From the NCBI GenBank assembly GCA_011364925.1, contig RDOA01000033.1:1-39480 (forward strand): 39,480 nt of DNA, written 5' to 3'. Both the position numbers and the translations under genes were made by a program. Shown here piece by piece: positions 3,076 through 18,873 of the stretch; within the stretch, counting starts at the first letter, position 1; every line of letters begins with the position of its first letter. The notes under the pieces are model-generated. The model saw nothing but the letters and a program-made list of their open reading frames with translations, made no database searches and had not been told where the DNA came from. The stretch comes from Promethearchaeota archaeon (GTDB taxonomy: Archaea; Asgardarchaeota; Lokiarchaeia; Sigyniarchaeales; SOKP01).

Positions 3076-3103
3076 AATTTACATAAATATCCCTGCGAGA
3101 AAA

Positions 3104-4507
3104 ATGAATAATAACATAAGTTTGATCGGATTAGAAAATATTCCCATTATAAAACCAGGTGATGATCTCCCATCGATTATTTACAATGCTTTAAATGAAA
3201 ATCAAATGTCTTTACAGAATGGAGATATCTTAGTTATAGCTCAAACAGTAGTTTCAAAAAGTCTCGGAAGAATTAAAAATCTAAATGATATCACGCCCAG
3301 CCAAGAAGCTATTGATATATATGAAAAAATGGCGCCTTTGATTGAAAAAAGTGGTTTACCCTCAAAATCTCCAGAGTTAATACAAAGTATACTCGATGAA
3401 TCGAAAGAGGTAATAAAAACAGAACAAGTCATGATTGTTGAAACTCATCATGGCTTTATATGCGCCAATGCGGGAATCGATCAATCAAATGTGGGAGGAG
3501 GTGGCTTAATAACATTATTACCTATCGATTCTGATAAAGAAGCTGAAAAGATTAGAAGTTCCCTTCAAAAATTAACTGGAAAAAGAATTGCCATAATAGT
3601 ATCTGATTCGTTTGGAAGAGCTTTCAGAATTGGAGCCGTCGGAGTGGCATTAGGTGTATCAGGATTAAGTCCAATTCTGGATAAAAGAGGGAGTAAAGAT
3701 CTTTATGGGAAAGAACTACAAAGCACGATTGTTGGTCAAATTGATAATTTAGCGTCCTCGGCTCAATTGATCATGGGAGAAGCGGATGAAGGCATACCAG
3801 TTGTATTAATAAGAGGATATAATTACGCTTTTGAGGAGAATGTATCCATTAAACAAATTTTAAGAGAAAAAAAGGCTGATTTGTTTAGAAAAGAAAGAGA
3901 TCCAAAAGATCTCGAAGATATTTTGAAAGCTCGTAGGAGTTATAAGTTCAGGTTTAGTGATAAAAAAGTGAATAAAAATTTGATAGAAGAGAGCATAGAG
4001 TTAGCTCGTTGGGCACCAAGTGCTCATAATGGTCAATTTTGGCGTTATATCATAATAGAAAGGGGAAAATCCCGTGAAAATCTAATCAAAAATATGAACA
4101 ATAAATTAAAAGATGATTTACAAGGAGATGGAAAATCGGAAGAATTTATTCGCAAAAAAGTTGAAAAAACCAAAACTAACTTTTTGGATGCTCCTTATTT
4201 AATTCTTCTTTGTTTAGACGATAAAGACTTAGAGAGATATTCAGACAAAACTCGGATAAAATACGAATTTATAATGGGAGTACAAAGTGTTAGTGCTTCA
4301 GCAACTTACTTACTCCTTGCTTTTGAAATAAAAGGATTATCTGCATGCTGGTATTGTGCCCCATTATTTGCTAAGGATATTATTACGAAAACATTGAACT
4401 TGCCTGATTCCTATATTCCAATGGCATTTTTTACAGTAGGTTATTCAATTAAGAAGACACCAAAACCAAAACGTAAGGACTTGAATGAAATAATTTTCAA
4501 TGTATAA
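3104..4507 (+). CDS. cofE: Coenzyme F420-0:L-glutamate ligase fused to a C-terminal FMN nitroreductase domain (FbiB-type)
   Basis: N-terminal CofE motifs IPIIKPGDDL, VVSKSLGR, CANAGIDQSN, DSFGRAFR and MGEADEGIPVV; C-terminal nitroreductase motifs ARRSY and WAPSAHNGQFWRY. Confidence 0.92.
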   Translation: MNNNISLIGLENIPIIKPGDDLPSIIYNALNENQMSLQNGDILVIAQTVVSKSLGRIKNLNDITPSQEAIDIYEKMAPLIEKSGLPSKSPELIQSILDESKEVIKTEQVMIVETHHGFICANAGIDQSNVGGGGLITLLPIDSDKEAEKIRSSLQKLTGKRIAIIVSDSFGRAFRIGAVGVALGVSGLSPILDKRGSKDLYGKELQSTIVGQIDNLASSAQLIMGEADEGIPVVLIRGYNYAFEENVSIKQILREKKADLFRKERDPKDLEDILKARRSYKFRFSDKKVNKNLIEESIELARWAPSAHNGQFWRYIIIERGKSRENLIKNMNNKLKDDLQGDGKSEEFIRKKVEKTKTNFLDAPYLILLCLDDKDLERYSDKTRIKYEFIMGVQSVSASATYLLLAFEIKGLSACWYCAPLFAKDIITKTLNLPDSYIPMAFFTVGYSIKKTPKPKRKDLNEIIFNV

Positions 4508-4529
4508 TTAATGGATTTCATGAGGAATA

Positions 4530-5465
4530 ATGAGCAATAACTATTACTTAATTCTTGCTGGAGGAGTGGGTGCAGCAAAATTCATCGAAGGTCTTGCCAA
4601 TGTAGTCGACCCATCTCTGTTAAAGATTGTCATTAATACTGGTGATGATATTGAATTGTATGGTCTGAAAATTTGCCCCGATATCGATATAATTACTTAT
4701 ACCTTAGCAAATATAATTGATAAGCAGAAGGGTTGGGGCGTTCAAGATGAATCCTTTAATTGTTTAAATGCTTTAACAAAATTTTACGACTTTAAGTGGT
4801 TTAACCTAGGGGACAAAGATTTAGCAACTCACATCTTTCGAACTGATTTATTTAAGAAAGGTTATAATAAAACAGAAATTACATCGATAATTTGTAAAAG
4901 GTTAGGAATTAAATCTCAACTTATTCCAATGAGTAATGATGATGTTCAAACGTTTATTAGAACAAAAACAGAGACAATGCATTTTGAGAAATATTATATT
5001 AAATATCAATGCGAACCTGATGTATTAGAAATATCAATTCATGGCATAGACAAAGCAAAACCAGAAAAACATATTATTGAATATATAAAAGGAGCAAAAA
5101 AAATAATAATTTGCCCGTCGAATCCAATAGTGTCGATAGGGACAATATTAGGGTTATATGGGATTAAAAATGCTTTAAAAAAAGTAAAGCATAAAGTTAT
5201 TGGTATTAGTCCTATTATTGAAGGCGCAACGGTAAAAGGTCCGGCAGATAAATTAATGAAATGTCTTGGATTAGAAGTTTCTTGTATAGGAGTAGCGAAT
5301 TATTACAAAGAAATTTTAAGTCACTTTGTTATTGATAATAGAGACGGTGAATCAAAACCAGAAATTGAGGATTTAGGGATACATACTTACTGCTATGATA
5401 CACTAATGGATTCTATAGAAAAAAAGAAAGCTCTTGCTCAATTTGTTATTAATATTGAAGTTTAA
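4530..5465 (+). CDS. cofD: 2-phospho-L-lactate/phosphoenolpyruvate transferase CofD (FbiA)
   Basis: Motifs LAGGVGAAKF, NTGDD, ICPDID, WFNLGDKDLATH, PSNPIVSIG and GPADKLM; adjacent to cofE. Confidence 0.95.
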   Translation: MSNNYYLILAGGVGAAKFIEGLANVVDPSLLKIVINTGDDIELYGLKICPDIDIITYTLANIIDKQKGWGVQDESFNCLNALTKFYDFKWFNLGDKDLATHIFRTDLFKKGYNKTEITSIICKRLGIKSQLIPMSNDDVQTFIRTKTETMHFEKYYIKYQCEPDVLEISIHGIDKAKPEKHIIEYIKGAKKIIICPSNPIVSIGTILGLYGIKNALKKVKHKVIGISPIIEGATVKGPADKLMKCLGLEVSCIGVANYYKEILSHFVIDNRDGESKPEIEDLGIHTYCYDTLMDSIEKKKALAQFVINIEV

Positions 5466-5482: not shown

Positions 5483-6931
5483 TTATGTTGCTGTCTCTTG
5501 AATTTCAACTTCCTTTTCTTTTTCTTCTTCTACTTCTTCTTTTTTAACGTAATCTCCAACTGATGCTAATATCTCTTTAATTCTTCCTTCTTGTTGAAGT
5601 CGGATAATTAAATTTCTATGTTTTATTGAAGCAATAACCTTTGAGATTACCGGAAATAGAAGTATTAATGGGATTAATAAGATTATAATTACTTCTGGTG
5701 AATACATCGCAACACTCTCTGTGATCGCTGGAGGTAAACTGAAAACATGTTCCATAAACCATTTGGGATGAATTATTATGAAACTAATTATTACTAATAA
5801 ACCAAACCGAAAAATAAAATTCGTCGCCGTAGATGTCAGAAGACTTCTTGGCCTGGGTGCAGATGATCGAGCAGTTATAGTATCACGAGCTTCAGAATCC
5901 TCTCGAAACAGTTGATCTATATATCTTCCAAGTCTTCTGGTTTTTGAGGCAGCTGTTATCAATTTTTTTTCTTCTTCCTCTAATTTTCTTCTCTCAATCA
6001 TTTCCTTGACAAAAGAAAAAGTTTCCCCTGTTTTTGCGAAGAACTTACCGATCGTTGCTTTGTCTTCGATTTTTAGTTCTTGTCTTCTTGCCTTAGCTTC
6101 TTCCTTTATTTTGTCAACATTTGCAGTTATATAATGAGATTCGCTCTCCAATACGAGCAATTGAGCTTCTAATCTCAATCTTCTCTCTAAAGATGGTTTG
6201 GTAACTGTGTAAGTATAATTTATTTGAAACGCTAACTCTAAATACATATATGACGCAATAGCAAGAAGAATTACTGGACTACCGAAAAATTGAAAGATAT
6301 TATCGATAGGTATCTGTTTTAATGAGGGATCAAGCGGATCAGGTAGATTTTCCAAATCTGGTAGGGTTATATAAAAAAGTTTCAGCATATCTCTAAGCCC
6401 AAAAACCATTAGAGGAATTACCAGCATGAGTACAATAGAACCAATAACAATGATATCGCTTTTAGGGTCTGTTTTTAGAAATGCTTTGATTGCATAGATT
6501 ATAGCAATTATAAAAAGAATTTGAAATGCGAATAAATACAGGTTCTCACTAAATACTGTAAATTCTTGGCCGATATAATAAGGAAGGTCTAAAAATTTTG
6601 GTGTTTCCCCACCAGGGACATTAGGGAATGTAAACCATAAATTAAAAAGCTGTCTGAAGAAATCATCTACTAAAGTAAATAAATCTAGTGAAGCGGCAGA
6701 AAATAGAAGTGAGATGATAAATGCACAACCAATCGCAATGCTATATGCTACACCAAATACGATGTAAGTTGCAATATTTTTTAAACTATTGAAAAACGCT
6801 AGTATAGCGAGTTCTCCATCAGATGTAGTTAGAACAGTATCGAAATGAAATATTGAGAGGAAAATGAAGAGAATCCAGACAAAAATCAAGACATTTATTA
6901 TCTTTAAAACTAAAATATAATTTCTTGCCAT
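5483..6931 (-). CDS. Uncharacterised polytopic membrane protein (~7 TM) with a large charged helical loop; last gene of the MoxR cluster
   Basis: 482 aa ORF with about seven hydrophobic segments and a ~130 aa charged helical loop (LERRLRLEAQ...ERRKLEEEEKK); starts 2 nt after the DUF58 gene stop. Confidence 0.8.
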   Translation of the reverse strand: MARNYILVLKIINVLIFVWILFIFLSIFHFDTVLTTSDGELAILAFFNSLKNIATYIVFGVAYSIAIGCAFIISLLFSAASLDLFTLVDDFFRQLFNLWFTFPNVPGGETPKFLDLPYYIGQEFTVFSENLYLFAFQILFIIAIIYAIKAFLKTDPKSDIIVIGSIVLMLVIPLMVFGLRDMLKLFYITLPDLENLPDPLDPSLKQIPIDNIFQFFGSPVILLAIASYMYLELAFQINYTYTVTKPSLERRLRLEAQLLVLESESHYITANVDKIKEEAKARRQELKIEDKATIGKFFAKTGETFSFVKEMIERRKLEEEEKKLITAASKTRRLGRYIDQLFREDSEARDTITARSSAPRPRSLLTSTATNFIFRFGLLVIISFIIIHPKWFMEHVFSLPPAITESVAMYSPEVIIILLIPLILLFPVISKVIASIKHRNLIIRLQQEGRIKEILASVGDYVKKEEVEEEKEKEVEIQETAT

Positions 6932-6933
6932 TT

Positions 6934-8262
6934 CTAATATGCACTCCCCTTCTTTTTAGCTTCCATATAATTACCTAATACTTGATTCATCATATCATCT
7001 GGACCAACAGTTATAATGTTCACTCCAAGATTTCTTACCTCCTGTTTAACACTGATGATGTGTTCCATCATTTCTTCACTAATTGCTTCTGCAAGTGCTT
7101 TATCTGTTGACGAAAGATCAATTTCATGAATTTCGAACCAAGGACTGAAAGGATTAATTATTATTACTGTATGATTGAATGGGATTAGCTTTCTAATTGC
7201 TTGACCGATCTCTTTTGGACCCGCTTCTAAATCTGATATTATAAAAATTAAACTACGTTTTTGATATCGCCTATTCAGAAAGTCCATAGCCTCTACAAAG
7301 CGGGATTTTCCTTGTGGTTTAACTTTAGCAACAAAATCTAATACTTGATAAAAGTGATCTTCTCCGCTACCTGGTTTTAGGAAATTAAAATTCTTTTTAT
7401 CTGAGTACGTAAACACACCTACTTTATCTTTCCGAGACAAAGCAACTTTTGTTAATAGCATACAAGCTCTGATTGCAAACTCAAATTTAGTGTTTTCTAT
7501 CGCTCCTCCTGCCATTGAATTTGACGAATCAACTAAAATCATAACAGAAACATCTCTTTCGCTTTCAAATTCCTTTACGATTAATTTTTGAGATCGCGCA
7601 CTCGCTTTCCAATCAATTAATCTAAATTGATCTCCGAATACATATTGTCTCATGCCATAAAATTCTGATCCAAGTCCCTTTTGTTTTGACCTTTGTAGGC
7701 CATAATTTTGACTCAACGACCTTTTAGATCCCAAAATTTCTATACGTTTTATGTCTTCGTAAGGTGGATAAACCAGAATGTCAGACACACTATCAGGTAC
7801 AACTCTTTCAACTGAGTTAAAGCCAAGTCTATCTTTAACTATTAAAGATAGAGGACCTAAAGGATATTCTCCCCTGACTTTCGGTTCTAGAATATAACTG
7901 AATTTTATCTGATTCCTAGGTCCTATTCTTGTTGTTATGAAATTTTCTCCTAAAACCAATCTAAATAGTTCTGGATTGTAATAATCTCGAATTTCTAGAA
8001 AATCAAAGCTATTTTTACCCGAGTTCTCAACAACAACCTTTACATGAACAAAGTCATCTTTAAAAACTTTTTCTTTTTCAAGTTCTCTATGAACGCGCAG
8101 TTCTTCTATGTTCATCTGGTAATAGAATAGAGGTAGGCTTACAACAGTACTAAATATTAAGAGAATTGCAAAATAAATTAGGAAGTAATTTTCAAATGCA
8201 AATCCGGCTGTCAGAAAAAAAACTGAGAATAACACTAATGTTCTTCCTTTTCCTCCTAACAT
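6934..8262 (-). CDS. DUF58/VWA-domain protein (MoxR partner) with N-terminal TM hairpin and Ig-like domain
   Basis: DUF58 motif GSEFYGMRQYVFGD...IDWKASAR...KEFESE; MIDAS motif DSSNS and later ISD; two N-terminal TM helices. Confidence 0.9.
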   Translation of the reverse strand: MLGGKGRTLVLFSVFFLTAGFAFENYFLIYFAILLIFSTVVSLPLFYYQMNIEELRVHRELEKEKVFKDDFVHVKVVVENSGKNSFDFLEIRDYYNPELFRLVLGENFITTRIGPRNQIKFSYILEPKVRGEYPLGPLSLIVKDRLGFNSVERVVPDSVSDILVYPPYEDIKRIEILGSKRSLSQNYGLQRSKQKGLGSEFYGMRQYVFGDQFRLIDWKASARSQKLIVKEFESERDVSVMILVDSSNSMAGGAIENTKFEFAIRACMLLTKVALSRKDKVGVFTYSDKKNFNFLKPGSGEDHFYQVLDFVAKVKPQGKSRFVEAMDFLNRRYQKRSLIFIISDLEAGPKEIGQAIRKLIPFNHTVIIINPFSPWFEIHEIDLSSTDKALAEAISEEMMEHIISVKQEVRNLGVNIITVGPDDMMNQVLGNYMEAKKKGSAY

Positions 8263-8320
8263 AATTTATTCATTCCTCTTATATTTAGACTTTTTTCCAT
8301 TGATATTTTAAAAAAATACT

Positions 8321-9301
8321 TTAGATAGGAATTGGAATATCTTCGATGATGTTCTTAATCACCGTCTTAACATCAAGACCTTCAAGTTCAGCTTCCGGTT
8401 TTAACAAAATTCGATGGTTCAATGCGGGGACAACTAGCGCTCGCACATCGTCTGGAGTTACATAAACTCTTCCAAGGATTGCAGCTCTTGCTTTCGAACA
8501 CTTCATCAAGACTAGAGATGCTCGTGGACCACAACCAAGAGCAACTTGAGGGTGGTTTCGAGTCTTTAAGATTATATCTCTAATGTATTTTAGTATTCTA
8601 TCATCTATGTAAACCATATTCATTAATTTTTGTGCCGCTAGTAACTCTTCCCCACTAGTTATTGATTCTACGGAAGGAGAATCACCAGAAATCTGCCGTC
8701 TCATTATATCCACTTCCTCTTCTTTTTCAGGGTAATCCAACCAGAGCTTCATAATGAATCGATCTAGTTGTGCTTCTGGTAGAGGATAAGTACCCTCCAT
8801 TTCAACAGGATTTTCTGTTGCGATGACCATGAAAGGTTTTTGAAGAGGAAGCGTTTCACCTTCAATTGTTATTTGTCGTTCAGCCATAGCTTCGAGAAGA
8901 GCTGCTTGAGTTTTGGGAGCACTCCTATTTATTTCGTCTGCTAAGACAATATTTGCAAATAATGGGCCTCTTTGAAGCACAAATGCACCCTCGTTTTGAT
9001 CAAAGATTTTAGTTCCCGTAATATCTGCAGGTAGCAAATCTGGAGTAAATTGTACTCTTCTAAAAGAGATTCCGAGAGTTTTTGCGAAAGTTTTTGCCAT
9101 AACTGTTTTTCCTAAACCAGGCACTCCTTCAAGAAGGACATGCCCATTAACTAATAATGCGATGAAAAGTTGCTGTAAGATATCTCCATATCCCACTATA
9201 ACACGGCTTACTTCTGAGAGAACTTCTTGTGCTATTTCTCTAATGGGCTCTACATTTATTTGTTCCATATCGTAGTATTTTGCTTTATTTGGGGTTTCCA
9301 T
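8321..9301 (-). CDS. moxR: MoxR-family AAA+ ATPase
   Basis: GHVLLEGVPGLGKT (Walker A), RVQFTPDLLPADITG, LADEINR (Walker B), ATENPVEMEGTYPLPEAQLDRF. Confidence 0.96.
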   Translation of the reverse strand: METPNKAKYYDMEQINVEPIREIAQEVLSEVSRVIVGYGDILQQLFIALLVNGHVLLEGVPGLGKTVMAKTFAKTLGISFRRVQFTPDLLPADITGTKIFDQNEGAFVLQRGPLFANIVLADEINRSAPKTQAALLEAMAERQITIEGETLPLQKPFMVIATENPVEMEGTYPLPEAQLDRFIMKLWLDYPEKEEEVDIMRRQISGDSPSVESITSGEELLAAQKLMNMVYIDDRILKYIRDIILKTRNHPQVALGCGPRASLVLMKCSKARAAILGRVYVTPDDVRALVVPALNHRILLKPEAELEGLDVKTVIKNIIEDIPIPI

Positions 9302-9370
9302 TAATTATCACATCTTTTATTTTTTATTTTTTTTGATTAATTTAATTTTAATTGATTATTTTGATTGTGT

Positions 9371-11104
9371 TTAAATATTTTTAACCATCCATTCCATTTC
9401 GAAGTAGAGGTTTTCAAAATCTTGTTCATTTTTAACTTTACTTTTTCCTTCTTTAATAGCTATCATTGTATCCATAAATTTTGATATTCTTCTTACTTTA
9501 GATTTCGTAATTTTTGGTTCCTTAGCGATAACAAAATCTAATACATTTTGGGTTGTAATTTTACGCCCTTGTAAAATTGCATTTAGTTTTCTTTCTAACC
9601 TTCTATATAGTAAAGTCAAAGCCTTTCCATATCTATTTTTCTCTCTATACCACTCGATCTTTTCTGCAAAAAAGGAGGACGTTCTAAATCTTTCTCTTTC
9701 TTCTGCTCTATCTATCTCTTCAGCTTTCTTTTTCTCCTTTTTCTTATCTTTTTTAGGTAAATATTTTCTCAAAGAATAAACTGCTAACAGAGGATATATC
9801 CAAGCGGTAATTGGATTAGTACTTAAATGTATGATATATTGAGTGATAAATCCAAAAATTCCTGCTGATGTCATATCTCTTGAGAATTCTGGTCGAATGT
9901 GAGCCTCGTCAAAAACGACGACCCAATTTTGTTTAGGTTCGCCATAAGTGAGCCAATGTATTATATTTAATCCAAATTGGAGATTATCATAAGCAGATTC
10001 AGCTATTAACTCGTTATTAAATAAACTCGCATCGGCTGATAAAAAAATTCTTGAATTTCCAATATCTTTAGCCATAAAAACCCCTTGTGAATAACCTCCA
10101 AGGGGCCATTTTGTCGGAAAACCAGGCAAGGCACCTCCGATAAAACTTAGATCAACATAGTCATCATCAAAATTATACTTATGGTCACCGTTTTTATCGA
10201 CATACCCATAATCCGTACTTGAACCTACTAAATCCCATCCAAAATATGAAATAAATGGACCTCCTACTACGGAAGATGCTTCTGATAAAATAACTTGGCT
10301 AATACCAATGGTGGTTGGATGAGTTGAAAATGATTTTATTACGGGAAAATCTGGTGCCGTGTCGAATGAAGCGTTATCTCTCAAGATTCCATTAGCGAAT
10401 ATTGTAACTGGTATTTTACCCATTAAAGAAGGATCAAGAAGGCTAGCTAAATAGATCTCCCATAATAGAGTACTTGTACTACCATGATCATGGCAGATAA
10501 ATAATGAGTTCCGTGTACTTGAAGTATTATCATATCGGAAAAAATCCAAGAAGTATGGAATTTCAAATATTGGATTATAAAATTGGTTCGGACCTAATAA
10601 GATCAATAAAATGGATTTGTCTAATCTTTCTGTAGCACTCAGACTAGACTGAATTGACATCACCTCGTATCCATCATTTTTTATTGCCTGTCTGAAATCA
10701 CTCGACCCATTCCAATCATTGTTATAAACTGAAAAGTTTTGATCGTTAACCCCTTGGTCGAATATTGGCCCAAACAAGGGGATAAAACAAAAAATAAAGA
10801 TTACTATGAAGAGAGCTTCTTTAAAGACAGATCCCCCTTTTTGTTTCTTTCGCGATTGGACTTCTCTTGATTTTTGAACTGTCACATTTCTAATAAAAAT
10901 TATTAATCCGAATCCTAAGAATATAGCTCCGATATAACACACTAAAGGTAAGTAACTTATGAAAATGGGAAGATCTTCACCATAAATCTCAAAGAAGCCA
11001 CTTATAAATATACCATAGACTATTAGAAAAATTGTGAAAAAGCCTATGACCAAACCCTTTGAGAGACTAACATTCCTTCCAGAAGATTTTCCAACACTTG
11101 ACAT
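9371..11104 (-). CDS. DUF4350-like membrane protein (3 N-terminal TM, extracellular domain, TM, cytoplasmic helical tail)
   Basis: FSVYNNDWNGSSDF, ADASLFNN and VVFDEAH motifs resemble DUF4350 proteins of MoxR clusters; a DxNxD-type possible Ca-binding loop (DKNGDHKY); genomic context. Confidence 0.7.
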   Translation of the reverse strand: MSSVGKSSGRNVSLSKGLVIGFFTIFLIVYGIFISGFFEIYGEDLPIFISYLPLVCYIGAIFLGFGLIIFIRNVTVQKSREVQSRKKQKGGSVFKEALFIVIFIFCFIPLFGPIFDQGVNDQNFSVYNNDWNGSSDFRQAIKNDGYEVMSIQSSLSATERLDKSILLILLGPNQFYNPIFEIPYFLDFFRYDNTSSTRNSLFICHDHGSTSTLLWEIYLASLLDPSLMGKIPVTIFANGILRDNASFDTAPDFPVIKSFSTHPTTIGISQVILSEASSVVGGPFISYFGWDLVGSSTDYGYVDKNGDHKYNFDDDYVDLSFIGGALPGFPTKWPLGGYSQGVFMAKDIGNSRIFLSADASLFNNELIAESAYDNLQFGLNIIHWLTYGEPKQNWVVVFDEAHIRPEFSRDMTSAGIFGFITQYIIHLSTNPITAWIYPLLAVYSLRKYLPKKDKKKEKKKAEEIDRAEERERFRTSSFFAEKIEWYREKNRYGKALTLLYRRLERKLNAILQGRKITTQNVLDFVIAKEPKITKSKVRRISKFMDTMIAIKEGKSKVKNEQDFENLYFEMEWMVKNI

Positions 11105-11158
11105 TATAAATTTGTTTTACCTTTTATTAAAAACTCAATATTAATCGGAACTAAAACA

Positions 11159-11539
11159 CTAAAAACTTACAGTTGGTAACGTTTTACCTGTTATATCGTT
11201 GTATAAATTTGAAAATAATTGAACCGTAAAGTTTAATTCTTTTCCTGTGGGTTCCACTCCACCATATATAATATCTTCAATTTTTTTTATAAAAGGATAT
11301 ATGGTTTCTGGTTTTTGTCCTAAATCGTTGACACAGGTTATAGCATATTCTCGTATTGTTTGGTATGCTAGACGTGGTTTTTTATACTTGAGAGTTATTA
11401 TATCGTTGTATATTAGGTAGATGTAAGCAATAGCTTCTTTCGCTCTATTTGAATCTGTCAAAATCTTTACATTTTCAAATTTTTGCTTAATGTTTACTTC
11501 AGGTTCTGGTTCCTTTTTTGATTTTTTCGTTTTTGCCAT
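11159..11539 (-). CDS. Small soluble DUF4129-like helical protein
   Basis: EAIAYIY...QTIREYA...IYPFIKKIEDIIYG pattern; clearly homologous to the C-terminal domain of 11645..13225. Confidence 0.7.
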   Translation of the reverse strand: MAKTKKSKKEPEPEVNIKQKFENVKILTDSNRAKEAIAYIYLIYNDIITLKYKKPRLAYQTIREYAITCVNDLGQKPETIYPFIKKIEDIIYGGVEPTGKELNFTVQLFSNLYNDITGKTLPTVSF

Positions 11540-11644
11540 ATTCTTTACCTATTTCTGTTTTGTTAATTTATTAAATTATTTTTTTTGATTTTATATTTCT
11601 TTCTACTTTTTGTTTTAAGTTTCAATTTGATCTGTTCTAATTTA

Positions 11645-13225
11645 TTAAAAATTTAATTCAAAATTGTATCCAGTTAATTCAAAGTATATTGGAGAGAATA
11701 AATTAATTGTACCGTAGAACTCTTTATCAGTTATCTGAAAGGGTTTTGCGTATATTATCTCCTCTACTTTTTGTATAAAAGGATAAATGGACGCTGGACT
11801 TAATTTTAAATTTGTTACTGAAATTATAGCAAAATCTCGTATAGTTTCATTTCCTTTTCTAACTCTACCAAATTTAGCTCCAATTAAATCCATGTAAATT
11901 GCATTGAAGAGGTAGGACAGTGATTCCTCTAACCTACCAGATTCTTTTAAAATTTTGAGATTTATTATTTTATCTTCAAGAGGTAGATTTACTACCTTTG
12001 ATAGCTTATCTTGTTTCTTATAATAACGATAACCATAAAAAGCTAAACCTCCGATAACAACTCCTATTATTGGAAGAAAAATTGAGAAGAACATTAGGAA
12101 AGGAGGAGCTTGAGGACCTAAACCAGGGGTTACTGTTGCTTGTTGAACGGTAATAAATTGTCTAGTGACTATATTTTTACCAGGATTATTTAGCAATCGA
12201 ATGGAAATACTTGCCTGGCCAGTCCATTGAGGAAGTGCGTGAACAATTGAAAAATCTCCGTTTGAATCTGTTGATAGAGAATTAATGAAAGTCCCATTAT
12301 AATATATTTCGATAATTCTGTTGGTTATAGCGAGAGAAGGATTGGTTCTAGAGACTACTTTTCCTGAGATTCTTAAATTGCTGGAAGCTCTAATTGTCGA
12401 TGGTAGGTCCCATATACATGATATATTCGAAAATAGATTTGTATTAGTATAGAGATGGTCGGAATATCCGACATCGGGTGGCGAAGCGTATGTAAGGAGC
12501 AGTTCTAAAATAGTAATACCAATATCTGGAATAAAAACTGGTTGGATTAAGCCTGATCCATCTGTAGAGACAAACCCACTATCTACAACAACGGGTCCAT
12601 CATACCAATAATAATTAATGGTTGAAAAAGGAATCCCAGAGCCACTATAATACCTTAAATAATCATCATTATCGAAGTCAAAAAATTCTCCGATTAATTT
12701 AGCTGTTCTAGGAGTATTAAAATCAAAATAAGAAGTGGTATTTACATAGATTATATAATGAGTACGATACTCGACTGTATCAGGAGTAGAATCAATCACA
12801 GTTGCTTCAATTTTATGAGACGAGTATATATCAAGGAAAGGATCAACGATATAATCTATTTGGAAATAGCCGTTTATGTCTGTAACATCATTATAACTGG
12901 AATCTACAACGTCATCTACTTCAATAGCAATAGTGTATCCTGGCTTTCCCTCTCCACCAGGAGGAATCCTGTTAAAAAGTCGCCCTTGTACGGTTATTAG
13001 ATCATCGTGAGTAAATCGTGTGTTATTGATGCCAACAGGATTAGTTAAATCTAGAGTCGCCCAGATACCTGAACTTTTCAAGTATTTTTCTTTATTTTGA
13101 ATATTCTGATAATTTGGAATTTGAAAAAATAATATGCTTGGAAAAATGATTAAGATACAGGCTAATACGATAACAATATAACCTATTTTATTATTAGGTT
13201 TTAATATATTTACTAATCTCGTCAT
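11645..13225 (-). CDS. Membrane-anchored Ig-like repeat protein with C-terminal TM and cytoplasmic DUF4129-like domain
   Basis: N-terminal hydrophobic helix; three beta-rich repeats carrying TDxxGxF-like motifs (TDINGYF, TDGSGLI, TDSNGDF); TM segment FLMFFSIFLPIIGVVIGGLAFY; tail with ETIRDFA...IYPFIQKVEEIIYA. Confidence 0.75.
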   Translation of the reverse strand: MTRLVNILKPNNKIGYIVIVLACILIIFPSILFFQIPNYQNIQNKEKYLKSSGIWATLDLTNPVGINNTRFTHDDLITVQGRLFNRIPPGGEGKPGYTIAIEVDDVVDSSYNDVTDINGYFQIDYIVDPFLDIYSSHKIEATVIDSTPDTVEYRTHYIIYVNTTSYFDFNTPRTAKLIGEFFDFDNDDYLRYYSGSGIPFSTINYYWYDGPVVVDSGFVSTDGSGLIQPVFIPDIGITILELLLTYASPPDVGYSDHLYTNTNLFSNISCIWDLPSTIRASSNLRISGKVVSRTNPSLAITNRIIEIYYNGTFINSLSTDSNGDFSIVHALPQWTGQASISIRLLNNPGKNIVTRQFITVQQATVTPGLGPQAPPFLMFFSIFLPIIGVVIGGLAFYGYRYYKKQDKLSKVVNLPLEDKIINLKILKESGRLEESLSYLFNAIYMDLIGAKFGRVRKGNETIRDFAIISVTNLKLSPASIYPFIQKVEEIIYAKPFQITDKEFYGTINLFSPIYFELTGYNFELNF

Positions 13226-13253
13226 TATTATCTGTATCTTTATATTTTTTTAA

Positions 13254-16200
13254 TTATGGCTCTCTATATAGTTCTATTGATAAAAATTCCACATAATAAT
13301 AATCAGGAGAACTGAAATTGTCTTCTGGGTAGAACGTAACATTAATCTCAGCGTTATCAGGCCAACTACCAACAAGTATAGTGATATTAAAGAAGCCATT
13401 AATATCTGTAAAACCGATGGCTGTTGCTAGCACATTTCCTACACTATCTGTTACGGTAACATTGACTTCCATAAAAGCCATGGCAGTTCCATTATCCCAA
13501 TTTAAAAATCCATAGACATAGAGATCGTCACCAAAGTAAAATTCATCTTTAACAACTCTAGTATCATAGTTTCCATTTATATTTACACCAGCTGTAATAT
13601 TGATGGGAACAACCATACTTATTGCTGTTTCCATATAGTTTGGCAAAGAGATTCCAACATCATAAAGACTTCCGGTAAAATAAATAAGAATGTAATAGCT
13701 ACCTTGAGGACAGTTCAGAAATATACGATTATTATCATAAAGATAATTTCCCCCATAAACGGTTCTAAATTGAGGACCATTTATGTTTAAGTACCCTGAA
13801 ACATCTCCAAGCGTACTATGCCATAAAATAAGACCTATTTCCAAACCGTTTAAATGCGTGCCGTTCTGTTGAAGCACGCCATCAACATTAAACTGATGAT
13901 AGTTTCTTTGAATTACCGTTCTGTCAAGATTAATAGAAATACTAATAGTTTCATTAATCACGATATAAGTAGTGTTAAAAGTGCTAAATGTATGATAATT
14001 AACTCGGAATCTTAACAAGCCCGCATATAAATCGTTTGTAGAGAGATTAAATTGAACGAACCCCGTTGAACCACTTGAAAATGTGTGTGAATCTAAAAGA
14101 TTATTAGTATAATCGTCATAGATATACACAGTTCTGGAATCAAACGGTTCTGGGTGAACGATTTGCACTTGAACATGGATAGTCTCGCCAAAATTATATG
14201 TTTCGGGGAGATATCCTGGGTCATAAAAAGGAACTGTGTGTCTACCTTCTACAGACAATAAAATATTGAGGTTATCAGGATCATATACTTGTAAATCCAA
14301 AATTCCATTATCAGCAGTGGTAAAATTACTATAACCTCCAAGATAGAAATCATATTCGTTATTTAAATTATAAGGCCAAGAGTACATAAAAATTCCATCA
14401 AATGCGACAATAATTGTGTAGTTTTTCTCAGGAGTTGAACTTAGAACCGAATAAGTTAAATCAAATACCCCACTTTCGTCTAAACGTAAGAATCCACTCT
14501 CTAGCGAGAGATATCCAGAGTAATCCGTAGCAAATTGGTCGAGCATATATACAAAAATTCTTGCGTATTTAATTGGCAAACTGTTGTTGGAATCTATCAC
14601 ATAGCCATGTATATTGAAATTTCTATTTGATGAACCACTCCTAGCGACGATATTCGGAGTGGGACCGCTTTCAATATTTATTGTTATAGGTGCGTTACAT
14701 ATAAAATACGAATAATTATAATTAGAGCCCCATCTAGCATATATTTGATGAGGTCCTGCAACAGTAAAAGTATCCGCATTATAAATTAAACTGGTAAAGC
14801 CATTAAGTGTTGAGGCTGAGCCTATTAAAACATCTTGAGTCACATCATAGAAGTCAATCCATTCTCCGTCACCAATGGGTATTCCGCCGGATTCGAGATA
14901 CACGCTTAAATTTACAAATCCATTCCTATAAATCACGGGTTGGTTATAATCGTCTGTTGGGTAACCATCTATCCAAAAATTAAATGTTAATGTGGTCGGA
15001 GTCGTTACCATAAGCTCATTAATAAACGTAGAAGATGTGTTGATATAAGGCAAAATAAAAAACGCGGGGTACACAGGATGAAAACTGCGATCAATAGTAC
15101 CATTGAAATCAAGTCTTAAAGTATAATTACCCGTTGGAGTATTCGATGCTACTTCAAACCATACATTAAAGTATCCATTGAAGTCGGTCCAGATTGTATT
15201 AGATGGCATTAAGTAAGGGGAACAGTCAATTCCACTTCTTAGTAACCGTAAATCTACTCTTGAATTCCCGATAGGTCTCCCAGTAGTGCGATCCAGAAGC
15301 TCTCCTTCTATATTGAAAAAGGTATTAGTAGCTCCCATTGCTGTGCGATTAATTACTCGAGGAACTGGCCCAGAAAAGATGTTGATTATAGGTTCTTCGT
15401 TTAGAATAAAGTATGAATGGTTTTCTTCTATCCCTACCTTTGCAAATAATAGATTTGGTCCTGTTGTCATTAGGTTATTTACAGTGTATCTGTATTTCGC
15501 AATCCCATTAATGTCAGTAGTATTAGCCCCTATTTGTAAACCACTCCTGTAGTCAAAAAACTGAACATTTTGATTTGGTATTGGGAAACTTGTTTCGTTC
15601 ACAACTTTTGCTTTTAGAATTATATCGTTACCTCTATTCGCAACCGGAGAATCTGGAATGAACGAGGGAACATCATTAATATAGAACCATACATATTTAA
15701 GAATTCCCCTTGTAACATTAAATTCCATTCGATTGCTTGAATCATTAACGTACCCAATGGCGAAATTCATAAAATACCAACTACCGTTTGTATCAATCCT
15801 TACATCGTATTGGTCAATAGAATTGTCGATAACATTAGTATAGACATCAAAAAAGCCATTAGGATCAGCGTTGAAGTATGTCATATCAAAGATGGGACTT
15901 GGAACTCTAGTACTTGTGCCCTTATAGAATACGACGATCTCCAAGGTCGTTCCACCTACATTTGTGTTTGCTACAGGATCGTATACATAACCTTGAATAT
16001 TTGTCGCAGGATCAATTGAAGTATTAACTTCTTGGGGGTTGATACTTTGAAGGTTTACTTCGATATCTCCATACACTGTATAAACGGTTGTATCATTAAC
16101 ATTAGGATTAAACTGAGCAAAAATATAATGGGGTCCTACTACCTGGGAATTATCGATATTTACTAAAATTGAAGCTTCCCCATTAATATCGGTGTAAACT

Positions 16201-17699
16201 TGGCCAAGGGATTGATACGATGTTATATCGAAGAACGAAATAGCTGTACTATTAACGGGATTTCCATCCAGTGTTAATGTTGCAGTCAAATTCGCCACAT
16301 TTCCTCTATATCCCGCTGTAAAGTTAGAATTTAAAACTAAAGAATAGTTGGCTAGTGTTGGAGGATTTCCTCCATAATTATCGTAATATACATCGAATTG
16401 TATCCATCTGCCATTTCCAATTGTATCTATAGGAATGTATATCTCAGCCCAATTATACATGTTTTTATATTTTATGGGGCAAGTGAGTTTCCCTTCTGTG
16501 GGATCAAAAATTTCTTGAGTTGTAAAGCTATTAAATCCATCTACAAAACGAGTCGGGATACCAAAAACTCGGGCAAATGCACAAAAAGCAGAAGTAAAAT
16601 CAGCCCAATATCCAATACCTTGCTCACAAAACCACTCTACTTGATCGTATCCCTGAGGAGCAGGATTATATTGGCTAGGATCTGTAATTCTAGCGAAATT
16701 ATATTGTAGGTAATTCCTAATCTTATCAGCGATAATAAAGGCATTATCACTACTTGTAATAGTTTTGTTTATTTCATTAACATAATAAGCGAAATCGTCA
16801 TTATTGTTGATATAAACATCAAGAGTATCTCCCTTTAGTTGTAAATATTTAGCTTGAATTGCAGGATCGATATATACAGGTTCAACTGCCATAGCATCGA
16901 TTTCAGCACCAGTTGGTAAATCTAACCCAAATAGCTCATAAGTCATGTTTACATTTCCTTGTGTGGCAGGATCAAGATTTATATCTAATGTAGTACAATT
17001 AAAATCATCCTTGTACAATTCAGGAGGACTTGTCATAAAATAGGGATTGGTATAAACACTACTTTCCATAATATAAGGATTAGGGAACAATGAAGGGATA
17101 ACCATTGAATTTGAGCCAGCATTTGGCGTAAGTAGCATTTTTAAAGATAACAAATCTTTGTCAGAATGATAACTTGAATAATTCGAATAGGAGTAAAAGT
17201 CAAGAATTTGTTTAGCAGCAGTTGAGTGCCATCCATCGCCGGTATATTCGTCAAAACTTTCGTATTTCCATAATTTAGTACGAATTTCATTGATATCATT
17301 ATAGTCGTAGATCCTGAAAACTTCAATTTCAGAAGCCATGAGTGCTGCAAGAGCTTGAGAATAATTATTTAAGTTTAAATCGTCGATGTTGCCATCAAAC
17401 ATTTCTTCTAAAGCGTTTAAAAGGTCACTCATTTCGTCTGGGGTTAGATTAAGATTTGAAAACAAGTCTTGAAAATCAGATACATTATAAGGAAATGGAG
17501 GCATTACTAATATGACGTCCTCGGGATCAGTTTCGTCCAATCGGTCGCTTGGAGTGGGCCTTTGGGTATTCCAAAGCAAACTCCAAAAAATAACTGAAAA
17601 CATAAACGCCCCGATTAACAATACTGCTACAACTACGATTTTAATAATTCGTTTTGTATTGATCGAGGTTGCTAATAAATCCTCACGAAATTCTGACAT
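13254..17699 (-). CDS. Large cell-surface transglutaminase-like (TgpA-type) protein with Ig-like repeat stalk; catalytic residues degenerate
   Basis: N-terminal TM; FDEYTGDGW (TgpA N-domain-like); core GYWADFTSAFCAFARVFGIPTRFVDGF...YNWAEIY...GRWIQFD; about 1000 aa of beta-rich repeats with many NxS/T sequons. Confidence 0.85.
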   Translation of the reverse strand: MSEFREDLLATSINTKRIIKIVVVAVLLIGAFMFSVIFWSLLWNTQRPTPSDRLDETDPEDVILVMPPFPYNVSDFQDLFSNLNLTPDEMSDLLNALEEMFDGNIDDLNLNNYSQALAALMASEIEVFRIYDYNDINEIRTKLWKYESFDEYTGDGWHSTAAKQILDFYSYSNYSSYHSDKDLLSLKMLLTPNAGSNSMVIPSLFPNPYIMESSVYTNPYFMTSPPELYKDDFNCTTLDINLDPATQGNVNMTYELFGLDLPTGAEIDAMAVEPVYIDPAIQAKYLQLKGDTLDVYINNNDDFAYYVNEINKTITSSDNAFIIADKIRNYLQYNFARITDPSQYNPAPQGYDQVEWFCEQGIGYWADFTSAFCAFARVFGIPTRFVDGFNSFTTQEIFDPTEGKLTCPIKYKNMYNWAEIYIPIDTIGNGRWIQFDVYYDNYGGNPPTLANYSLVLNSNFTAGYRGNVANLTATLTLDGNPVNSTAISFFDITSYQSLGQVYTDINGEASILVNIDNSQVVGPHYIFAQFNPNVNDTTVYTVYGDIEVNLQSINPQEVNTSIDPATNIQGYVYDPVANTNVGGTTLEIVVFYKGTSTRVPSPIFDMTYFNADPNGFFDVYTNVIDNSIDQYDVRIDTNGSWYFMNFAIGYVNDSSNRMEFNVTRGILKYVWFYINDVPSFIPDSPVANRGNDIILKAKVVNETSFPIPNQNVQFFDYRSGLQIGANTTDINGIAKYRYTVNNLMTTGPNLLFAKVGIEENHSYFILNEEPIINIFSGPVPRVINRTAMGATNTFFNIEGELLDRTTGRPIGNSRVDLRLLRSGIDCSPYLMPSNTIWTDFNGYFNVWFEVASNTPTGNYTLRLDFNGTIDRSFHPVYPAFFILPYINTSSTFINELMVTTPTTLTFNFWIDGYPTDDYNQPVIYRNGFVNLSVYLESGGIPIGDGEWIDFYDVTQDVLIGSASTLNGFTSLIYNADTFTVAGPHQIYARWGSNYNYSYFICNAPITINIESGPTPNIVARSGSSNRNFNIHGYVIDSNNSLPIKYARIFVYMLDQFATDYSGYLSLESGFLRLDESGVFDLTYSVLSSTPEKNYTIIVAFDGIFMYSWPYNLNNEYDFYLGGYSNFTTADNGILDLQVYDPDNLNILLSVEGRHTVPFYDPGYLPETYNFGETIHVQVQIVHPEPFDSRTVYIYDDYTNNLLDSHTFSSGSTGFVQFNLSTNDLYAGLLRFRVNYHTFSTFNTTYIVINETISISINLDRTVIQRNYHQFNVDGVLQQNGTHLNGLEIGLILWHSTLGDVSGYLNINGPQFRTVYGGNYLYDNNRIFLNCPQGSYYILIYFTGSLYDVGISLPNYMETAISMVVPINITAGVNINGNYDTRVVKDEFYFGDDLYVYGFLNWDNGTAMAFMEVNVTVTDSVGNVLATAIGFTDINGFFNITILVGSWPDNAEINVTFYPEDNFSSPDYYYVEFLSIELYREP
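13257..16350 (-). repeat. Protein-level tandem Ig-like repeats (alternating A/B modules, about four pairs plus a terminal module)
   Basis: A modules: FFDITSYQSLGQVYTDINGEA..VGPH, FFDYRSGLQIGANTTDINGIA..TGPN, FYDVTQDVLIGSASTLNGFT..AGPH. B modules: INIFSGPVPRVINR..FNIEG, INIESGPTPNIVAR..FNIHG. Boundaries are approximate. Confidence 0.7.
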
Positions 17700-17885: not shown

Positions 17886-18758
17886 TTAAAATTCAAAACC
17901 GCATTTTGTGCAAATACTTTTCTTTGCGTATTGAGGTTTGGGAATATAACTTAAAATTTTTGATTTATCCTCAACTTCCTTAATCGCAAATCCAGTAGCC
18001 CCACAATTTGGACAGATTCTTCTACCTGATCCAATTCCAGCAGCTGGACTGGGCATTGGGGTTGTACTGGGAGAAGAAGTTGGTGAGGTGCCAAATGAAG
18101 GACTACTCCCAAGAGTTGGAGATTGAGTAGTAATGCCTTGAGCTAGACTTGATGGCATTACAGCTTTAGGTTCTTTTAATTCTTGAATTCTTCTATCTTT
18201 ATAAGCTGATTCTTCTTGTAACCTGGCAATTTGATTCTGTAACGGTCCGATCTGTTGCTGTAAGTTCATATTCTCCTGTTGAACCTGTTGAAGTTGGCCC
18301 TCTAATTGGGGAATGTGAGCTTGTAGTTGTGCCTTCTCATTATTTATTTGAGAAATTTGATTTTGAAAACCCTCCATTGATGACTGAAGACTTCGAATTT
18401 GTCCCGTTAATTGGTTGATTTGATTATCCTTACTCATAAGTTGAGCATTTAAATTAGCACATTCAGCATTCGCTTGATTAACTTGGTTCTGCAATTGACC
18501 TATTTTCGTATCTCTATCTTGAACTTGAGACATCACAGCATTATAGTCTGCTTGTGTAGGACCGGTTGGGATTGCGGGTGCAGTTCCATATACTGGGGAT
18601 TCAAATGATGGTGTAGGAGGAGGTGTAGGTGGCGCCATTGTGGGAGGAGGTGTTGTAGGGGGAGGCATCGAAGGGGGAGGCATCGAAGGTGGTTGAAACG
18701 GGGGAGGACCCCTAGGCTTGTATTCGTCCTCGTCATCTCTTTCATATTCTTCCGACAT
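17886..18758 (-). CDS. Uncharacterised protein: acidic N-terminus, polyproline region, Gln-rich coiled coil, Ser/Pro/Thr linker and C-terminal Zn ribbon
   Basis: PPPFQPPSMPPPSMPPPTTPPPT; about 125 aa of heptad-like Q/N-rich sequence; CPNCG...CTKCG at the C-terminus. ATG 18758 is preferred over 18776 because GAGAAG lies just upstream. Confidence 0.8.
   Translation of the reverse strand: MSEEYERDDEDEYKPRGPPPFQPPSMPPPSMPPPTTPPPTMAPPTPPPTPSFESPVYGTAPAIPTGPTQADYNAVMSQVQDRDTKIGQLQNQVNQANAECANLNAQLMSKDNQINQLTGQIRSLQSSMEGFQNQISQINNEKAQLQAHIPQLEGQLQQVQQENMNLQQQIGPLQNQIARLQEESAYKDRRIQELKEPKAVMPSSLAQGITTQSPTLGSSPSFGTSPTSSPSTTPMPSPAAGIGSGRRICPNCGATGFAIKEVEDKSKILSYIPKPQYAKKSICTKCGFEF
18661..18690. repeat. 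15-bp tandem duplication within the polyproline-coding region
   Basis: GGAGGCATCGAAGGG followed by GGAGGCATCGAAGGT, encoding two PSMPP-type units on the minus strand. Confidence 0.8.
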
Positions 18759-18873
18759 AATTATCTTCTCTTTCATTTAATCCTAAAAATTACATTATCT
18801 GTAACTTTAATAGTGAATTTTGTTTATAAACTATGGCACAAAAAGTGATCTGCTTTTACTGGTGTGTAATGAA

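Follow-up and report, generated by a model that had tools for sequence, protein, structure and literature searches.

For the gene neighbourhoods of arCOG01314, which holds DUF4350 proteins, Makarova et al. (2015) predicted, by computational analysis only, a complex involved in secretion or membrane remodelling, and the secretion proposal was based on the similarity of DUF4350 to GldG, a protein linked to gliding and to the type IX secretion system (PMC5898192). In these neighbourhoods, a membrane-anchored DUF4350 protein adjoins a MoxR-family AAA+ ATPase and a DUF58 protein with a von Willebrand factor A (VWA) domain, in the company of small polytopic membrane proteins and of membrane proteins whose ectodomains are Ig-like. 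Likenesses to this arrangement are found in the subject of this work, a cluster of seven genes (g1 to g7) from a Promethearchaeota archaeon (Asgardarchaeota, Lokiarchaeia; GenBank assembly GCA_011364925.1), located within positions 1 to 39,480 of contig RDOA01000033.1, the 39,480-nucleotide stretch that we refer to as the window. The cluster is real and strongly conserved; it is the Asgard form of the arCOG01314-type module, resembling the TgpA operon of Pseudomonas aeruginosa, and as such represents a kind of system that has already been described rather than a new one, with one Asgard-specific component, g7.

All seven open reading frames (ORFs) are on the minus strand and occupy positions 5483-17699 of the window (12.2 kb), with gaps, along g1 to g7, of 28, 105, 54, 69, 58 and 2 nucleotides (nt). 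These coordinates are exactly those given in a first-pass annotation made from the nucleotide sequence, which had described seven co-directional genes with gaps of 2-105 nt:

g1, 13254..17699, minus strand, 1481 amino acids (aa): type-II anchored surface protein with a TgpA-like dead transglutaminase core
g2, 11645..13225, minus strand, 526 aa: bitopic protein with a C-terminal divergent DUF4129 domain
g3, 11159..11539, minus strand, 126 aa: soluble, free DUF4129-like paralog
g4, 9371..11104, minus strand, 577 aa: DUF4350 membrane protein (arCOG01314, GldG/GIFT-like)
g5, 8321..9301, minus strand, 326 aa: MoxR-type AAA+ ATPase (MRP subfamily), cytoplasmic
g6, 6934..8262, minus strand, 442 aa: DUF58 protein with an N-terminal hydrophobic hairpin, a VWA domain and an intact metal ion-dependent adhesion site (MIDAS)
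g7, 5483..6931, minus strand, 482 aa: polytopic membrane protein of an Asgard-only family

The check that the first-pass annotation had proposed, domain annotation of all seven proteins, was run with Pfam, profiles and hhalign and recovered the transglutaminase, DUF4350, MoxR, DUF58 and divergent DUF4129 domains.

Comparison with the described systems

The arCOG01314 description covers neighbourhoods of Euryarchaeota and Crenarchaeota and includes surface layer (S-layer)-like proteins of COG4743/pfam07760; none of the seven cluster proteins matches COG4743/pfam07760 (Pfam, E <= 0.01). Conversely, that description includes neither a giant protein combining transglutaminase and DUF4129 domains nor the Asgard-only g7 family. 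The VWA protein was read as likely secreted, whereas the hairpin of the Asgard DUF58 protein argues for a cytoplasmic body.

In P. aeruginosa, PA2875 (MoxR), PA2874 (DUF58) and PA2873 (TgpA) are co-transcribed; TgpA is essential, MoxR is dispensable, and TgpA has transglutaminase activity in vitro (PMC3507681). This operon, the only experimentally touched relative of the module, has in common with the Asgard cluster the genes for MoxR and DUF58 and for a membrane protein whose transglutaminase core is extracytoplasmic. Unlike the cluster proteins, TgpA carries the six-helix TgpA_N domain (DUF3488, PF11992), which has no match in g1 or g7 and no convincing one in the window's genome, where the best match (E 0.005) lies elsewhere and contains stop codons. 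Furthermore, TgpA is catalytically active whereas the triad of g1 reads W/Y/D, and the Asgard giant adds about 1000 aa of probable glycosylated beta-sandwich domains. The Pseudomonas operon has nothing that corresponds to the DUF4350 protein, the free DUF4129 protein or g7, and its genes are in a different order.

The bifidobacterial PFNA cluster consists of the genes for the kinase Pkb2, an FN3 protein, a MoxR AAA-ATPase, a DUF58 protein and a transglutaminase (pkb2 - fn3 - MoxR AAA-ATPase - duf58 - tgm; PMC8430577, PMC6803598). Here too, MoxR, DUF58 and a transglutaminase-like membrane protein are encoded together with a surface protein built of beta-sandwich (FN3) domains, and the surface component is fast-evolving and species-specific. 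The differences are that PFNA includes a Ser/Thr kinase that phosphorylates MoxR, whereas no kinase domain was detected in the seven cluster proteins or in ten flanking proteins, and that PFNA, a bacterial system tied to host cytokine binding, lacks DUF4350 and g7.

Further parallels are the MoxR-VWA pairs RavA-ViaA, NorQ-NorD and CbbQ-CbbO, in which the VWA adaptor docks the client by its MIDAS and the AAA+ ring remodels that client. The Asgard cluster shares with these chaperone pairs a MoxR-type AAA+ ATPase, hexameric in this family, and a VWA/MIDAS adaptor encoded next door; the known pairs, however, act on soluble or respiratory enzymes, whereas the Asgard adaptor is membrane-tethered, belongs to the DUF58 branch and would have a surface complex as its presumed client. 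The RavA-ViaA pair is quoted in one passage of PMC12067865, and according to a 2025 review, DUF58 still has no known role. Our literature search returned no paper that pairs DUF4129 with DUF4350, or MoxR with the Asgard surface. In line with what had been stated at the outset, no paper describing the function of this cluster type was found, and the 2015 account is predictive only (PMC5898192).

Conservation of the cluster and its sub-modules

The set used to assess conservation comprised 80 loci from species-representative genomes, and gene order was scored in the 43 that extend at least 8 kb upstream of g7. The g1 to g7 order is kept in 40 of these 43 loci, and DUF58 directly precedes g7 in 70/70 loci, mostly with a gap of 2-3 nt, so that the genes do form one conserved unit, as had been proposed. 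Within the genus, six genomes hold all seven genes in order, and identity to the window declines from MoxR and DUF58 (83-96%) through g3 and DUF4350, and then g7, to g2 and g1 (48-78%), with g1 being the fastest-evolving gene of the cluster. Slow evolution of MoxR and DUF58 combined with fast evolution of g1 and g2 is the pattern expected for cytoplasmic versus exposed parts.

Scattering of the genes in related genomes, which the first-pass annotation had named as evidence that would speak against it, does occur, but only in a minority. In genome G030, the cluster is in three pieces, with g1-g4 together, MoxR at a distance of 22 kb, and DUF58-g7 on a different contig, whereas three further genomes of the order have 2-7 kb with unrelated genes (TPR, LRR, resolvase and DEAD helicase) between MoxR and DUF58. 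Because breaks are found only at the g4|MoxR and MoxR|DUF58 junctions, the cluster appears to consist of three sub-modules: g1-g4, MoxR, and DUF58-g7. A different situation is seen in the closed genome G033:C1 of the same order (locus L009), where DUF58-g7 is present, the DUF4350 gene lies 1.6 Mb away and contains an in-frame TAA, and no MoxR was found at E <= 1e-30; in this genome, the module may be decaying.

Outside the window's order, five sampled Asgard families carry a five-gene core that consists of a fused giant, DUF4350, MoxR, DUF58 and g7. The giant (1170-2305 aa) combines a transglutaminase core, a beta-sandwich region, a membrane helix and a C-terminal DUF4129 domain; this transglutaminase-DUF4129 fusion was seen in loci L035, L036, L037, L040, L042 and L126. 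TgpA has the same build, with the transglutaminase and a C-terminal DUF4129 domain on one polypeptide (Pfam architecture). The seven-gene layout is found in at least two more families, f7 and f27; both add a free DUF4129 protein, and in f7 the transglutaminase part is also split off, like in the window. Because other Asgard families carry the fused five-gene core, the seven-gene layout appears to have arisen from a TgpA-like five-gene architecture that became 'exploded'. The five-gene core is also kept in G041, a closed genome of 1.4 Mb that is the smallest Asgard genome sampled (L126:4243-12399); there, the transglutaminase site is Ser/His/Asp, and g7 is shortened to 352 aa, with a reduced hairpin.

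A profile search finds g7 once per genome in 103 of the 121 sampled Asgard genomes, including all of the high-quality ones (52/52). It was not found in families f15 and f18 or in the closed genome G052, and the two f18 genomes checked and G052 have no canonical MoxR or DUF58 either; the parts of the module are thus missing together. This pattern bears on an alternative, that the seven genes are chance neighbours or share nothing more than transcription, without a common function. The three pieces in G030 and the unrelated genes between MoxR and DUF58 in several genomes are what such a reading would lead one to expect; however, the order kept in nearly all scored loci, the linkage of the same five families across the phylum, the joint absence in f18 and G052, and the linkage of transglutaminase, DUF4129, MoxR and DUF58 in bacteria as well all speak against it, and we regard this already disfavoured reading as scarcely credible.

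Some Asgard genomes contain paralogous clusters (type B, as opposed to type A, the only one in the window's genome): L033:2157-7340, L043:5416-9663, L044:6795-11238 and L125:8293-12481. These encode a small DUF4129 protein, DUF4350, MoxR and a DUF58 protein with a degenerate MIDAS, followed by a tightly coupled polytopic membrane ORF of 203-260 aa that belongs to no Pfam family and is unrelated to g7 (hhalign 0.1% in the comparison that we ran for a possible relationship). In two f15 genomes, the type-B cluster is found in place of type A.

A transglutaminase domain without its catalytic triad

The transglutaminase core of g1 (Transglut_core, Pfam E 1.4e-13, 51.5 bits) spans approximately aa 290-470, follows a single N-terminal membrane helix (hydropathy peak 13-31) and is predicted to face outwards. 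A profile of 13 Asgard transglutaminase cores, searched against the PDB, identified P. aeruginosa TgpA (6g49, E 2.1e-14) as the best solved relative, whereas a single-sequence phmmer search of the PDB with this region of g1 gave spurious antibody matches only. The catalytic Cys/His/Asp of TgpA align with Trp365/Tyr415/Asp436 of g1, and accordingly the Cys-His-Asp triad is absent from g1. With a tryptophan in place of the nucleophile and a tyrosine in place of the general base, transglutaminase catalysis by this domain is, judging from the aligned residues, excluded, in agreement with the earlier designation of the domain as non-catalytic.

The loss of the triad is not limited to the window. 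Throughout the window's order, the Cys is replaced by Trp or Pro and the His by Tyr, and across families f7, f9, f16 and f28 together with this order, the triad reads P/T/L, P/M/V, D/H/E, S/Y/Q, P/H/- or W/Y/D. In f5, it is S/H/D, and an intact C/H/D triad is found in family f21 and in the first of the two transglutaminase domains of f10. Because the triad is lost in most of the sampled Asgard lineages while the module stays intact, the conserved role of the module cannot be transglutaminase catalysis. These data also bear on the possibility that the cluster encodes a TgpA-like envelope enzyme whose transglutaminase domain cross-links or cleaves surface proteins upon activation by MoxR and DUF58. 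In its favour, the closest solved relative is active in vitro and essential in P. aeruginosa (PMC3507681), and f21 and the first f10 domain retain all three catalytic residues. Nevertheless, with both catalytic residues missing throughout the order, this possibility is refuted for the window by the sequence, and the cluster is fully conserved although catalysis by g1 is excluded; overall, we consider this possibility highly improbable. Two more Transglut_core genes are present in the genome outside the cluster (G000:C91:25977-26345 and G000:C11:89429-89779; 409 and 237 aa, respectively); both outscore g1 and may be the active enzymes.

The part of g1 beyond the transglutaminase core probably consists of beta-sandwich domains that are rich in N-glycosylation sequons. 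The protein contains 38 N-x-S/T sequons compared to 20.6 +/- 4.1 in shuffled sequences, and the cytoplasmic proteins contain nearly none. Thus, the glycosylation that the first-pass annotation envisaged for a surface stalk is supported, by sequon enrichment, for g1 only. Sub-threshold Pfam matches in g1 are to Big_1 and CarboxypepD_reg, and a BLAST search for internal repeats in g1 and g2 detected none at E < 0.01. In contrast to the fused giants, there is no DUF4129 domain on the g1 polypeptide, the transglutaminase and DUF4129 being split between g1 and g2.

Divergent DUF4129 domains in g2 and g3

According to the hydropathy profile, g2 consists of an N-terminal anchor, an ectodomain of about 340 aa, a membrane helix (376-394) and a C-terminal tail. 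The protein has no Pfam match of its own. Its ectodomain is probably Ig-like, the label that it had been given at first, but what backs this label is a weak lead, namely feature matches in the Atlas to CarboxypepD_reg/Big families at 0.88. The tail follows the membrane helix, as DUF4129 does in all the fused giants and in TgpA, and is predicted to be on the cytoplasmic side, which agrees with the placement originally proposed for it.

The g2 tail and g3 are clear paralogs by alignment, and their assignment to DUF4129 required profile comparison. Neither matches Pfam DUF4129 (PF13559) at E <= 10, and a six-frame scan of the genome with this family yields nothing at E <= 1; two g3 orthologs score 17.7 and 20.6 bits (E 5e-4 and 4e-3), below the cut-off of 24.8. 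However, hhalign of the g2-tail/g3 family against Pfam-positive DUF4129 segments of other Asgard lineages gives a probability of 99.6% (E 3.8e-24, 107 columns), and the hidden Markov model (HMM) of g3 matches precisely those C-terminal segments that Pfam calls DUF4129 in the fused Asgard giants. These profile matches identify both the g2 tail and g3 as divergent members of DUF4129, and the DUF4129-like designation that both had received from the sequence alone is upheld.

The AlphaFold2 (AF2) model of g3 shows five helices, with a predicted local distance difference test (pLDDT) score of 87.5, and on this model g3 is predicted to be a soluble five-helix bundle; Foldseek found no match for the fold at E <= 0.001. 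We also considered g3 as a HEPN-like protein in view of weak matches to four-helix bundles (template modelling score, TM, 0.44-0.59), but rejected this affinity, the R-x4-6-H motif being absent. Relatives of g3 amount to 521 proteins; among the 120 listed, the named organisms are all Asgard archaea except for one metagenome-assembled genome (MAG) labelled Nanopelagicaceae bacterium, and the relatives listed for the DUF4129-like profile are only close, unannotated ones. A contig (L080, DATKTW010000073.1) of a MAG named 'Candidatus Nanopelagicaceae bacterium' carries the Asgard cluster, with a g7 that is 75% identical to that of the window, and this contig is probably mis-binned.

MoxR and the DUF58 protein

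The assignment of g5 is straightforward, with matches to AAA_3 (E 9.7e-65, 216.8 bits) and AAA_lid_2 (E 2e-23, 82.3 bits), both over the Pfam cut-offs, and with intact Walker A (GVPGLGKT) and Walker B (VLADE) motifs read in the translation. It is the sole canonical AAA_3 gene in the genome: the genome scan gives one strong match, at 4e-65, and the next is at 9e-21. The g6 gene, 58 nt downstream, encodes a protein that matches DUF58 (E 1.5e-35, 122.8 bits; cut-off 23.4) and VWA_2 (E 5.5e-11, 43.5 bits). Its MIDAS, reported as intact by the first-pass annotation, is indeed complete, comprising D245-S-S-N-S, the T of ENTK and the D of ISDLE (D-x-S-x-S / T / D). The site is conserved in the type-A Asgard DUF58 orthologs, the sole departures being in L037 (first Ser to Cys) and L126 (Thr to Asn), whereas in the paralogous type-B DUF58 proteins it is degenerate.

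At its N-terminus, g6 has a hydrophobic stretch of 41 residues with a conserved turn inside and K/R on both sides, and this flanked hairpin is conserved across the type-A orthologs although missing in L009. Because positive charges flank the hairpin on both sides (the positive-inside rule), we infer an in-out-in hairpin with a cytoplasmic body. The cytoplasmic location initially assigned to MoxR and to the DUF58 body is thus the one predicted here.

g7, an Asgard-restricted membrane protein

The start of g7 is 2 nt after the DUF58 stop. Neither Pfam nor NCBIfam contains a family that matches the protein. When 1.84 billion representative proteins were searched exhaustively with its HMM, only 135 clusters were retrieved, every named one of which is Asgard (Hel-, Odin-, Hod- or Heimdall-archaeal), and the Atlas neighbours of g7 are Promethearchaeota. 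A search of the PDB with Foldseek gave no match (best E 0.28), and in a VIA-align comparison with 48,161 chains, the top Z was 8.3, for talin, TTYH and claudin-like bundles, which is within helical noise. Thus, g7 is an Asgard-restricted family without a detectable relative or a matching solved fold. We also considered that g7 might be the split-off TgpA_N domain, but there is no Pfam match to support this.

The hydropathy profile shows six peaks and a charged helical hairpin; taking the peaks together with the model helices, we read by eye seven membrane helices. In the AF2 model (pLDDT 88.8, predicted template modelling score 0.77), a 78-residue helix leaves a helical membrane bundle and forms a hairpin with helix 304-344, and after this come another two membrane helices and a tail that the model defines poorly. 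The helical hairpin of about 120 aa (aa 241-344) is predicted from this model to be cytoplasmic. The most conserved residues are E232, in YLE-FQ-NY at the membrane boundary, and the loop DPEA...LTA-SSAP just before the sixth membrane helix. We also considered the acidic C-terminal tail as a conserved MIDAS ligand and rejected it, given the variability of this tail and the low confidence of its model; what is conserved is E232 and the DPEA...LTA-SSAP loop.

The DUF4350 protein and the secretion hypothesis

By itself, g4 scores below the Pfam DUF4350 cut-off (25.4 bits vs 30.4). However, because 16/16 of its orthologs match DUF4350 (best E 1.3e-20), g4 is, on profile evidence, a DUF4350 member at the level of the orthologous group; ABC_transp_aux is matched by 9/16 of these orthologs and IFT52_GIFT by 3/16. 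The gene context, next to MoxR and VWA genes, fits arCOG01314. At threshold, the hydropathy scan shows three N-terminal membrane peaks only and none after the ectodomain; from the translation and the arCOG01314 description, we take the hydrophobic residues that precede the K-rich tail to be a fourth membrane helix; the tail itself is predicted to be conserved, helical and cytoplasmic. The first-pass annotation had taken this tail for a further DUF4129 copy, a suggestion that is not supported by the hhalign probabilities of 32% against the reference DUF4129 and 2.4% against the g3 family.

So could the cluster encode a dedicated secretion or translocation system, in the spirit of the 2015 proposal, with MoxR energising or gating an apparatus for export or anchoring that is made up of DUF4350, g7 and DUF58, and with g1 and g2 as its cargo instead of its lasting partners? 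Such a role was proposed for arCOG01314 neighbourhoods from the GldG similarity of DUF4350 (PMC5898192), and the matches of 9/16 g4 orthologs are to the GldG-like ABC_transp_aux. Furthermore, the polytopic g7, which has no known fold, could form a conduit, and the cargo-like genes g1-g3 show the greatest variation in architecture and size (1045-2361 aa). Against this stand the ordinary N-terminal signal anchors of g1 and g2, which are suited to Sec/YidC insertion, and the lack of an ABC ATPase or permease in the cluster. MoxR ATPases are not known to drive translocation, g7 is unlike any known channel or transporter (best Foldseek E 0.28, TM <= 0.19), and the conserved, cytoplasmic DUF4129 tail of the giant fits a resident subunit better than cargo. 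On balance, we consider secretion an unlikely function of the cluster, though the next best reading after the one that we favour.

A proposed membrane-spanning complex

The reading that we tentatively favour, while giving it somewhat less than an even chance, is that the seven proteins would form a membrane-spanning complex in which MoxR, DUF58 and g7 assemble, activate or remodel the surface proteins from the cytoplasmic side. The first sub-module, g1-g4, would be the structural unit, with the N-glycosylated pseudo-transglutaminase giant g1, the bitopic ectodomain protein g2 and the DUF4350 ectodomain outside, and with the DUF4129 helical bundles, one tethered and one free, together with the DUF4350 tail inside. 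The second would be the DUF58-g7 adaptor pair: the hairpin would hold DUF58 at the inner face of the membrane, presenting a functional MIDAS metal site, and g7, with its long cytoplasmic hairpin and conserved acidic loop, would be the obligate, Asgard-specific membrane partner of DUF58. The MoxR AAA+ hexamer, the third sub-module, would be the motor. In this scheme, the cytoplasmic face would offer three conserved handles, namely the tethered DUF4129 domain, the free one, and the g7 hairpin with its loop, and the DUF4129 domains or the g7 loop would serve MoxR/DUF58/g7 as the handles to act upon; on the extracellular face, there would be some 1800 residues of glycosylated ectodomain in addition to the DUF4350 domain. 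The output could be part of the non-crystalline glycoprotein coat and of the protruding surface structures of cultured Asgard cells. We favour assembly or remodelling from inside because the predicted handles face the cytoplasm, the ectodomains would be outside and the template of the known MoxR-VWA pairs is applied here. The conserved gene order, the joint absence of the parts in f18 and G052 and the membrane complex predicted for DUF4350-MoxR-VWA neighbourhoods (PMC5898192) speak for this reading as well. Along similar lines, the first-pass annotation had proposed that the motor would engage the DUF4129 tails and that the product may be an adhesion stalk.

Several considerations weigh against this proposal. 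The data show the gene content, its conservation, the sub-module boundaries, the lost triad, the intact MIDAS and, from hydropathy and charge, the topology, whereas physical association of the proteins, the ligand of the MIDAS and the cellular role are inferred. If the DUF58/VWA protein is secreted here, as Makarova et al. read it (PMC5898192), it could not meet MoxR. MoxR itself is not necessarily dedicated to the complex because it is unlinked in some relatives. The topology of the N-terminal half of g7 is ambiguous. Finally, the triad that is intact in two lineages may mean that the ancestral role was enzymatic rather than structural.

The same parts could also work in the opposite direction, as an outside-in sensor or threshold switch: an external ligand such as a polymer, a virus or a partner cell would be bound by the beta-sandwich domains and by the cleft of the dead transglutaminase, the signal would be relayed across the membrane to DUF4129, and MoxR/VWA would set or reset the switch. 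Pseudo-enzymes often retain binding clefts, and the transglutaminase core has remained recognisable despite the loss of the triad in most sampled lineages; the free DUF4129 paralog could compete or regulate; the ectodomains diverge fast; and MoxR-VWA systems are linked to thresholding in conflict systems in a passage quoted in PMC12067865. The cluster, however, lacks an output domain, be it a kinase, a DNA-binding domain or a nucleotide cyclase, and its near-universal presence as a single copy in Asgard genomes is more in keeping with a housekeeping role in the envelope than with a conflict sensor. Nor does it lie in a variable defence island, the flanks being lipoate and F420 genes. We consider a sensor distinctly unlikely.

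Returning to the membrane-spanning assembly or remodelling complex, a stronger version of it would be that DUF58-g7-MoxR is an Asgard-specific, near-universal machine that builds or operates the complex surface structures proposed for protrusions and for contacts with syntrophic partners, with g7 as a new fold coupling the AAA+ motor to glycoprotein stalks; this version we hold to be rather unlikely. Cultured Asgard cells have no S-layer but an amorphous coat with unidentified complex surface proteins, and Asgard surface structures are thought to be relevant to the cell-cell contacts in models of eukaryote origin (PMC9834061; bioRxiv 2025.11.06.686947). The cluster supplies named candidates, namely a giant glycoprotein encoded in nearly every sampled Asgard genome, and an ATPase and an adaptor that probably handle it. 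Furthermore, the intact module with its triad lost in most sampled Asgard lineages is a natural experiment on the widespread MoxR-DUF58-transglutaminase-DUF4129 module, and the g7 family, confined to Asgard archaea, has a good structural model but no detectable relative and no solved fold.

Flanking genes

The cluster is delimited downstream by a convergent LipS/lipoate-ligase/CofE/CofD string that ends at 5465 and is unrelated to the cluster. In this co-directional string (window 235-5465, plus strand), a lipoate-protein-ligase-like gene lies between two radical-SAM genes, which is a LipS1/LipS2-type arrangement, and is followed by a gene for a CofE-nitroreductase fusion and then by CofD. Upstream, a 186-nt AT-rich spacer separates g1 from an unrelated coiled-coil gene, a gene of the histone-deacetylase family and a Ras-family GTPase gene. 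The coiled-coil gene (17886-18776, minus strand) encodes a protein of 296 aa with weak matches to many eukaryote-type coiled-coil families, and the Ras-family small GTPase near the cluster is encoded at 20097-20609 on the plus strand (E 9e-40).

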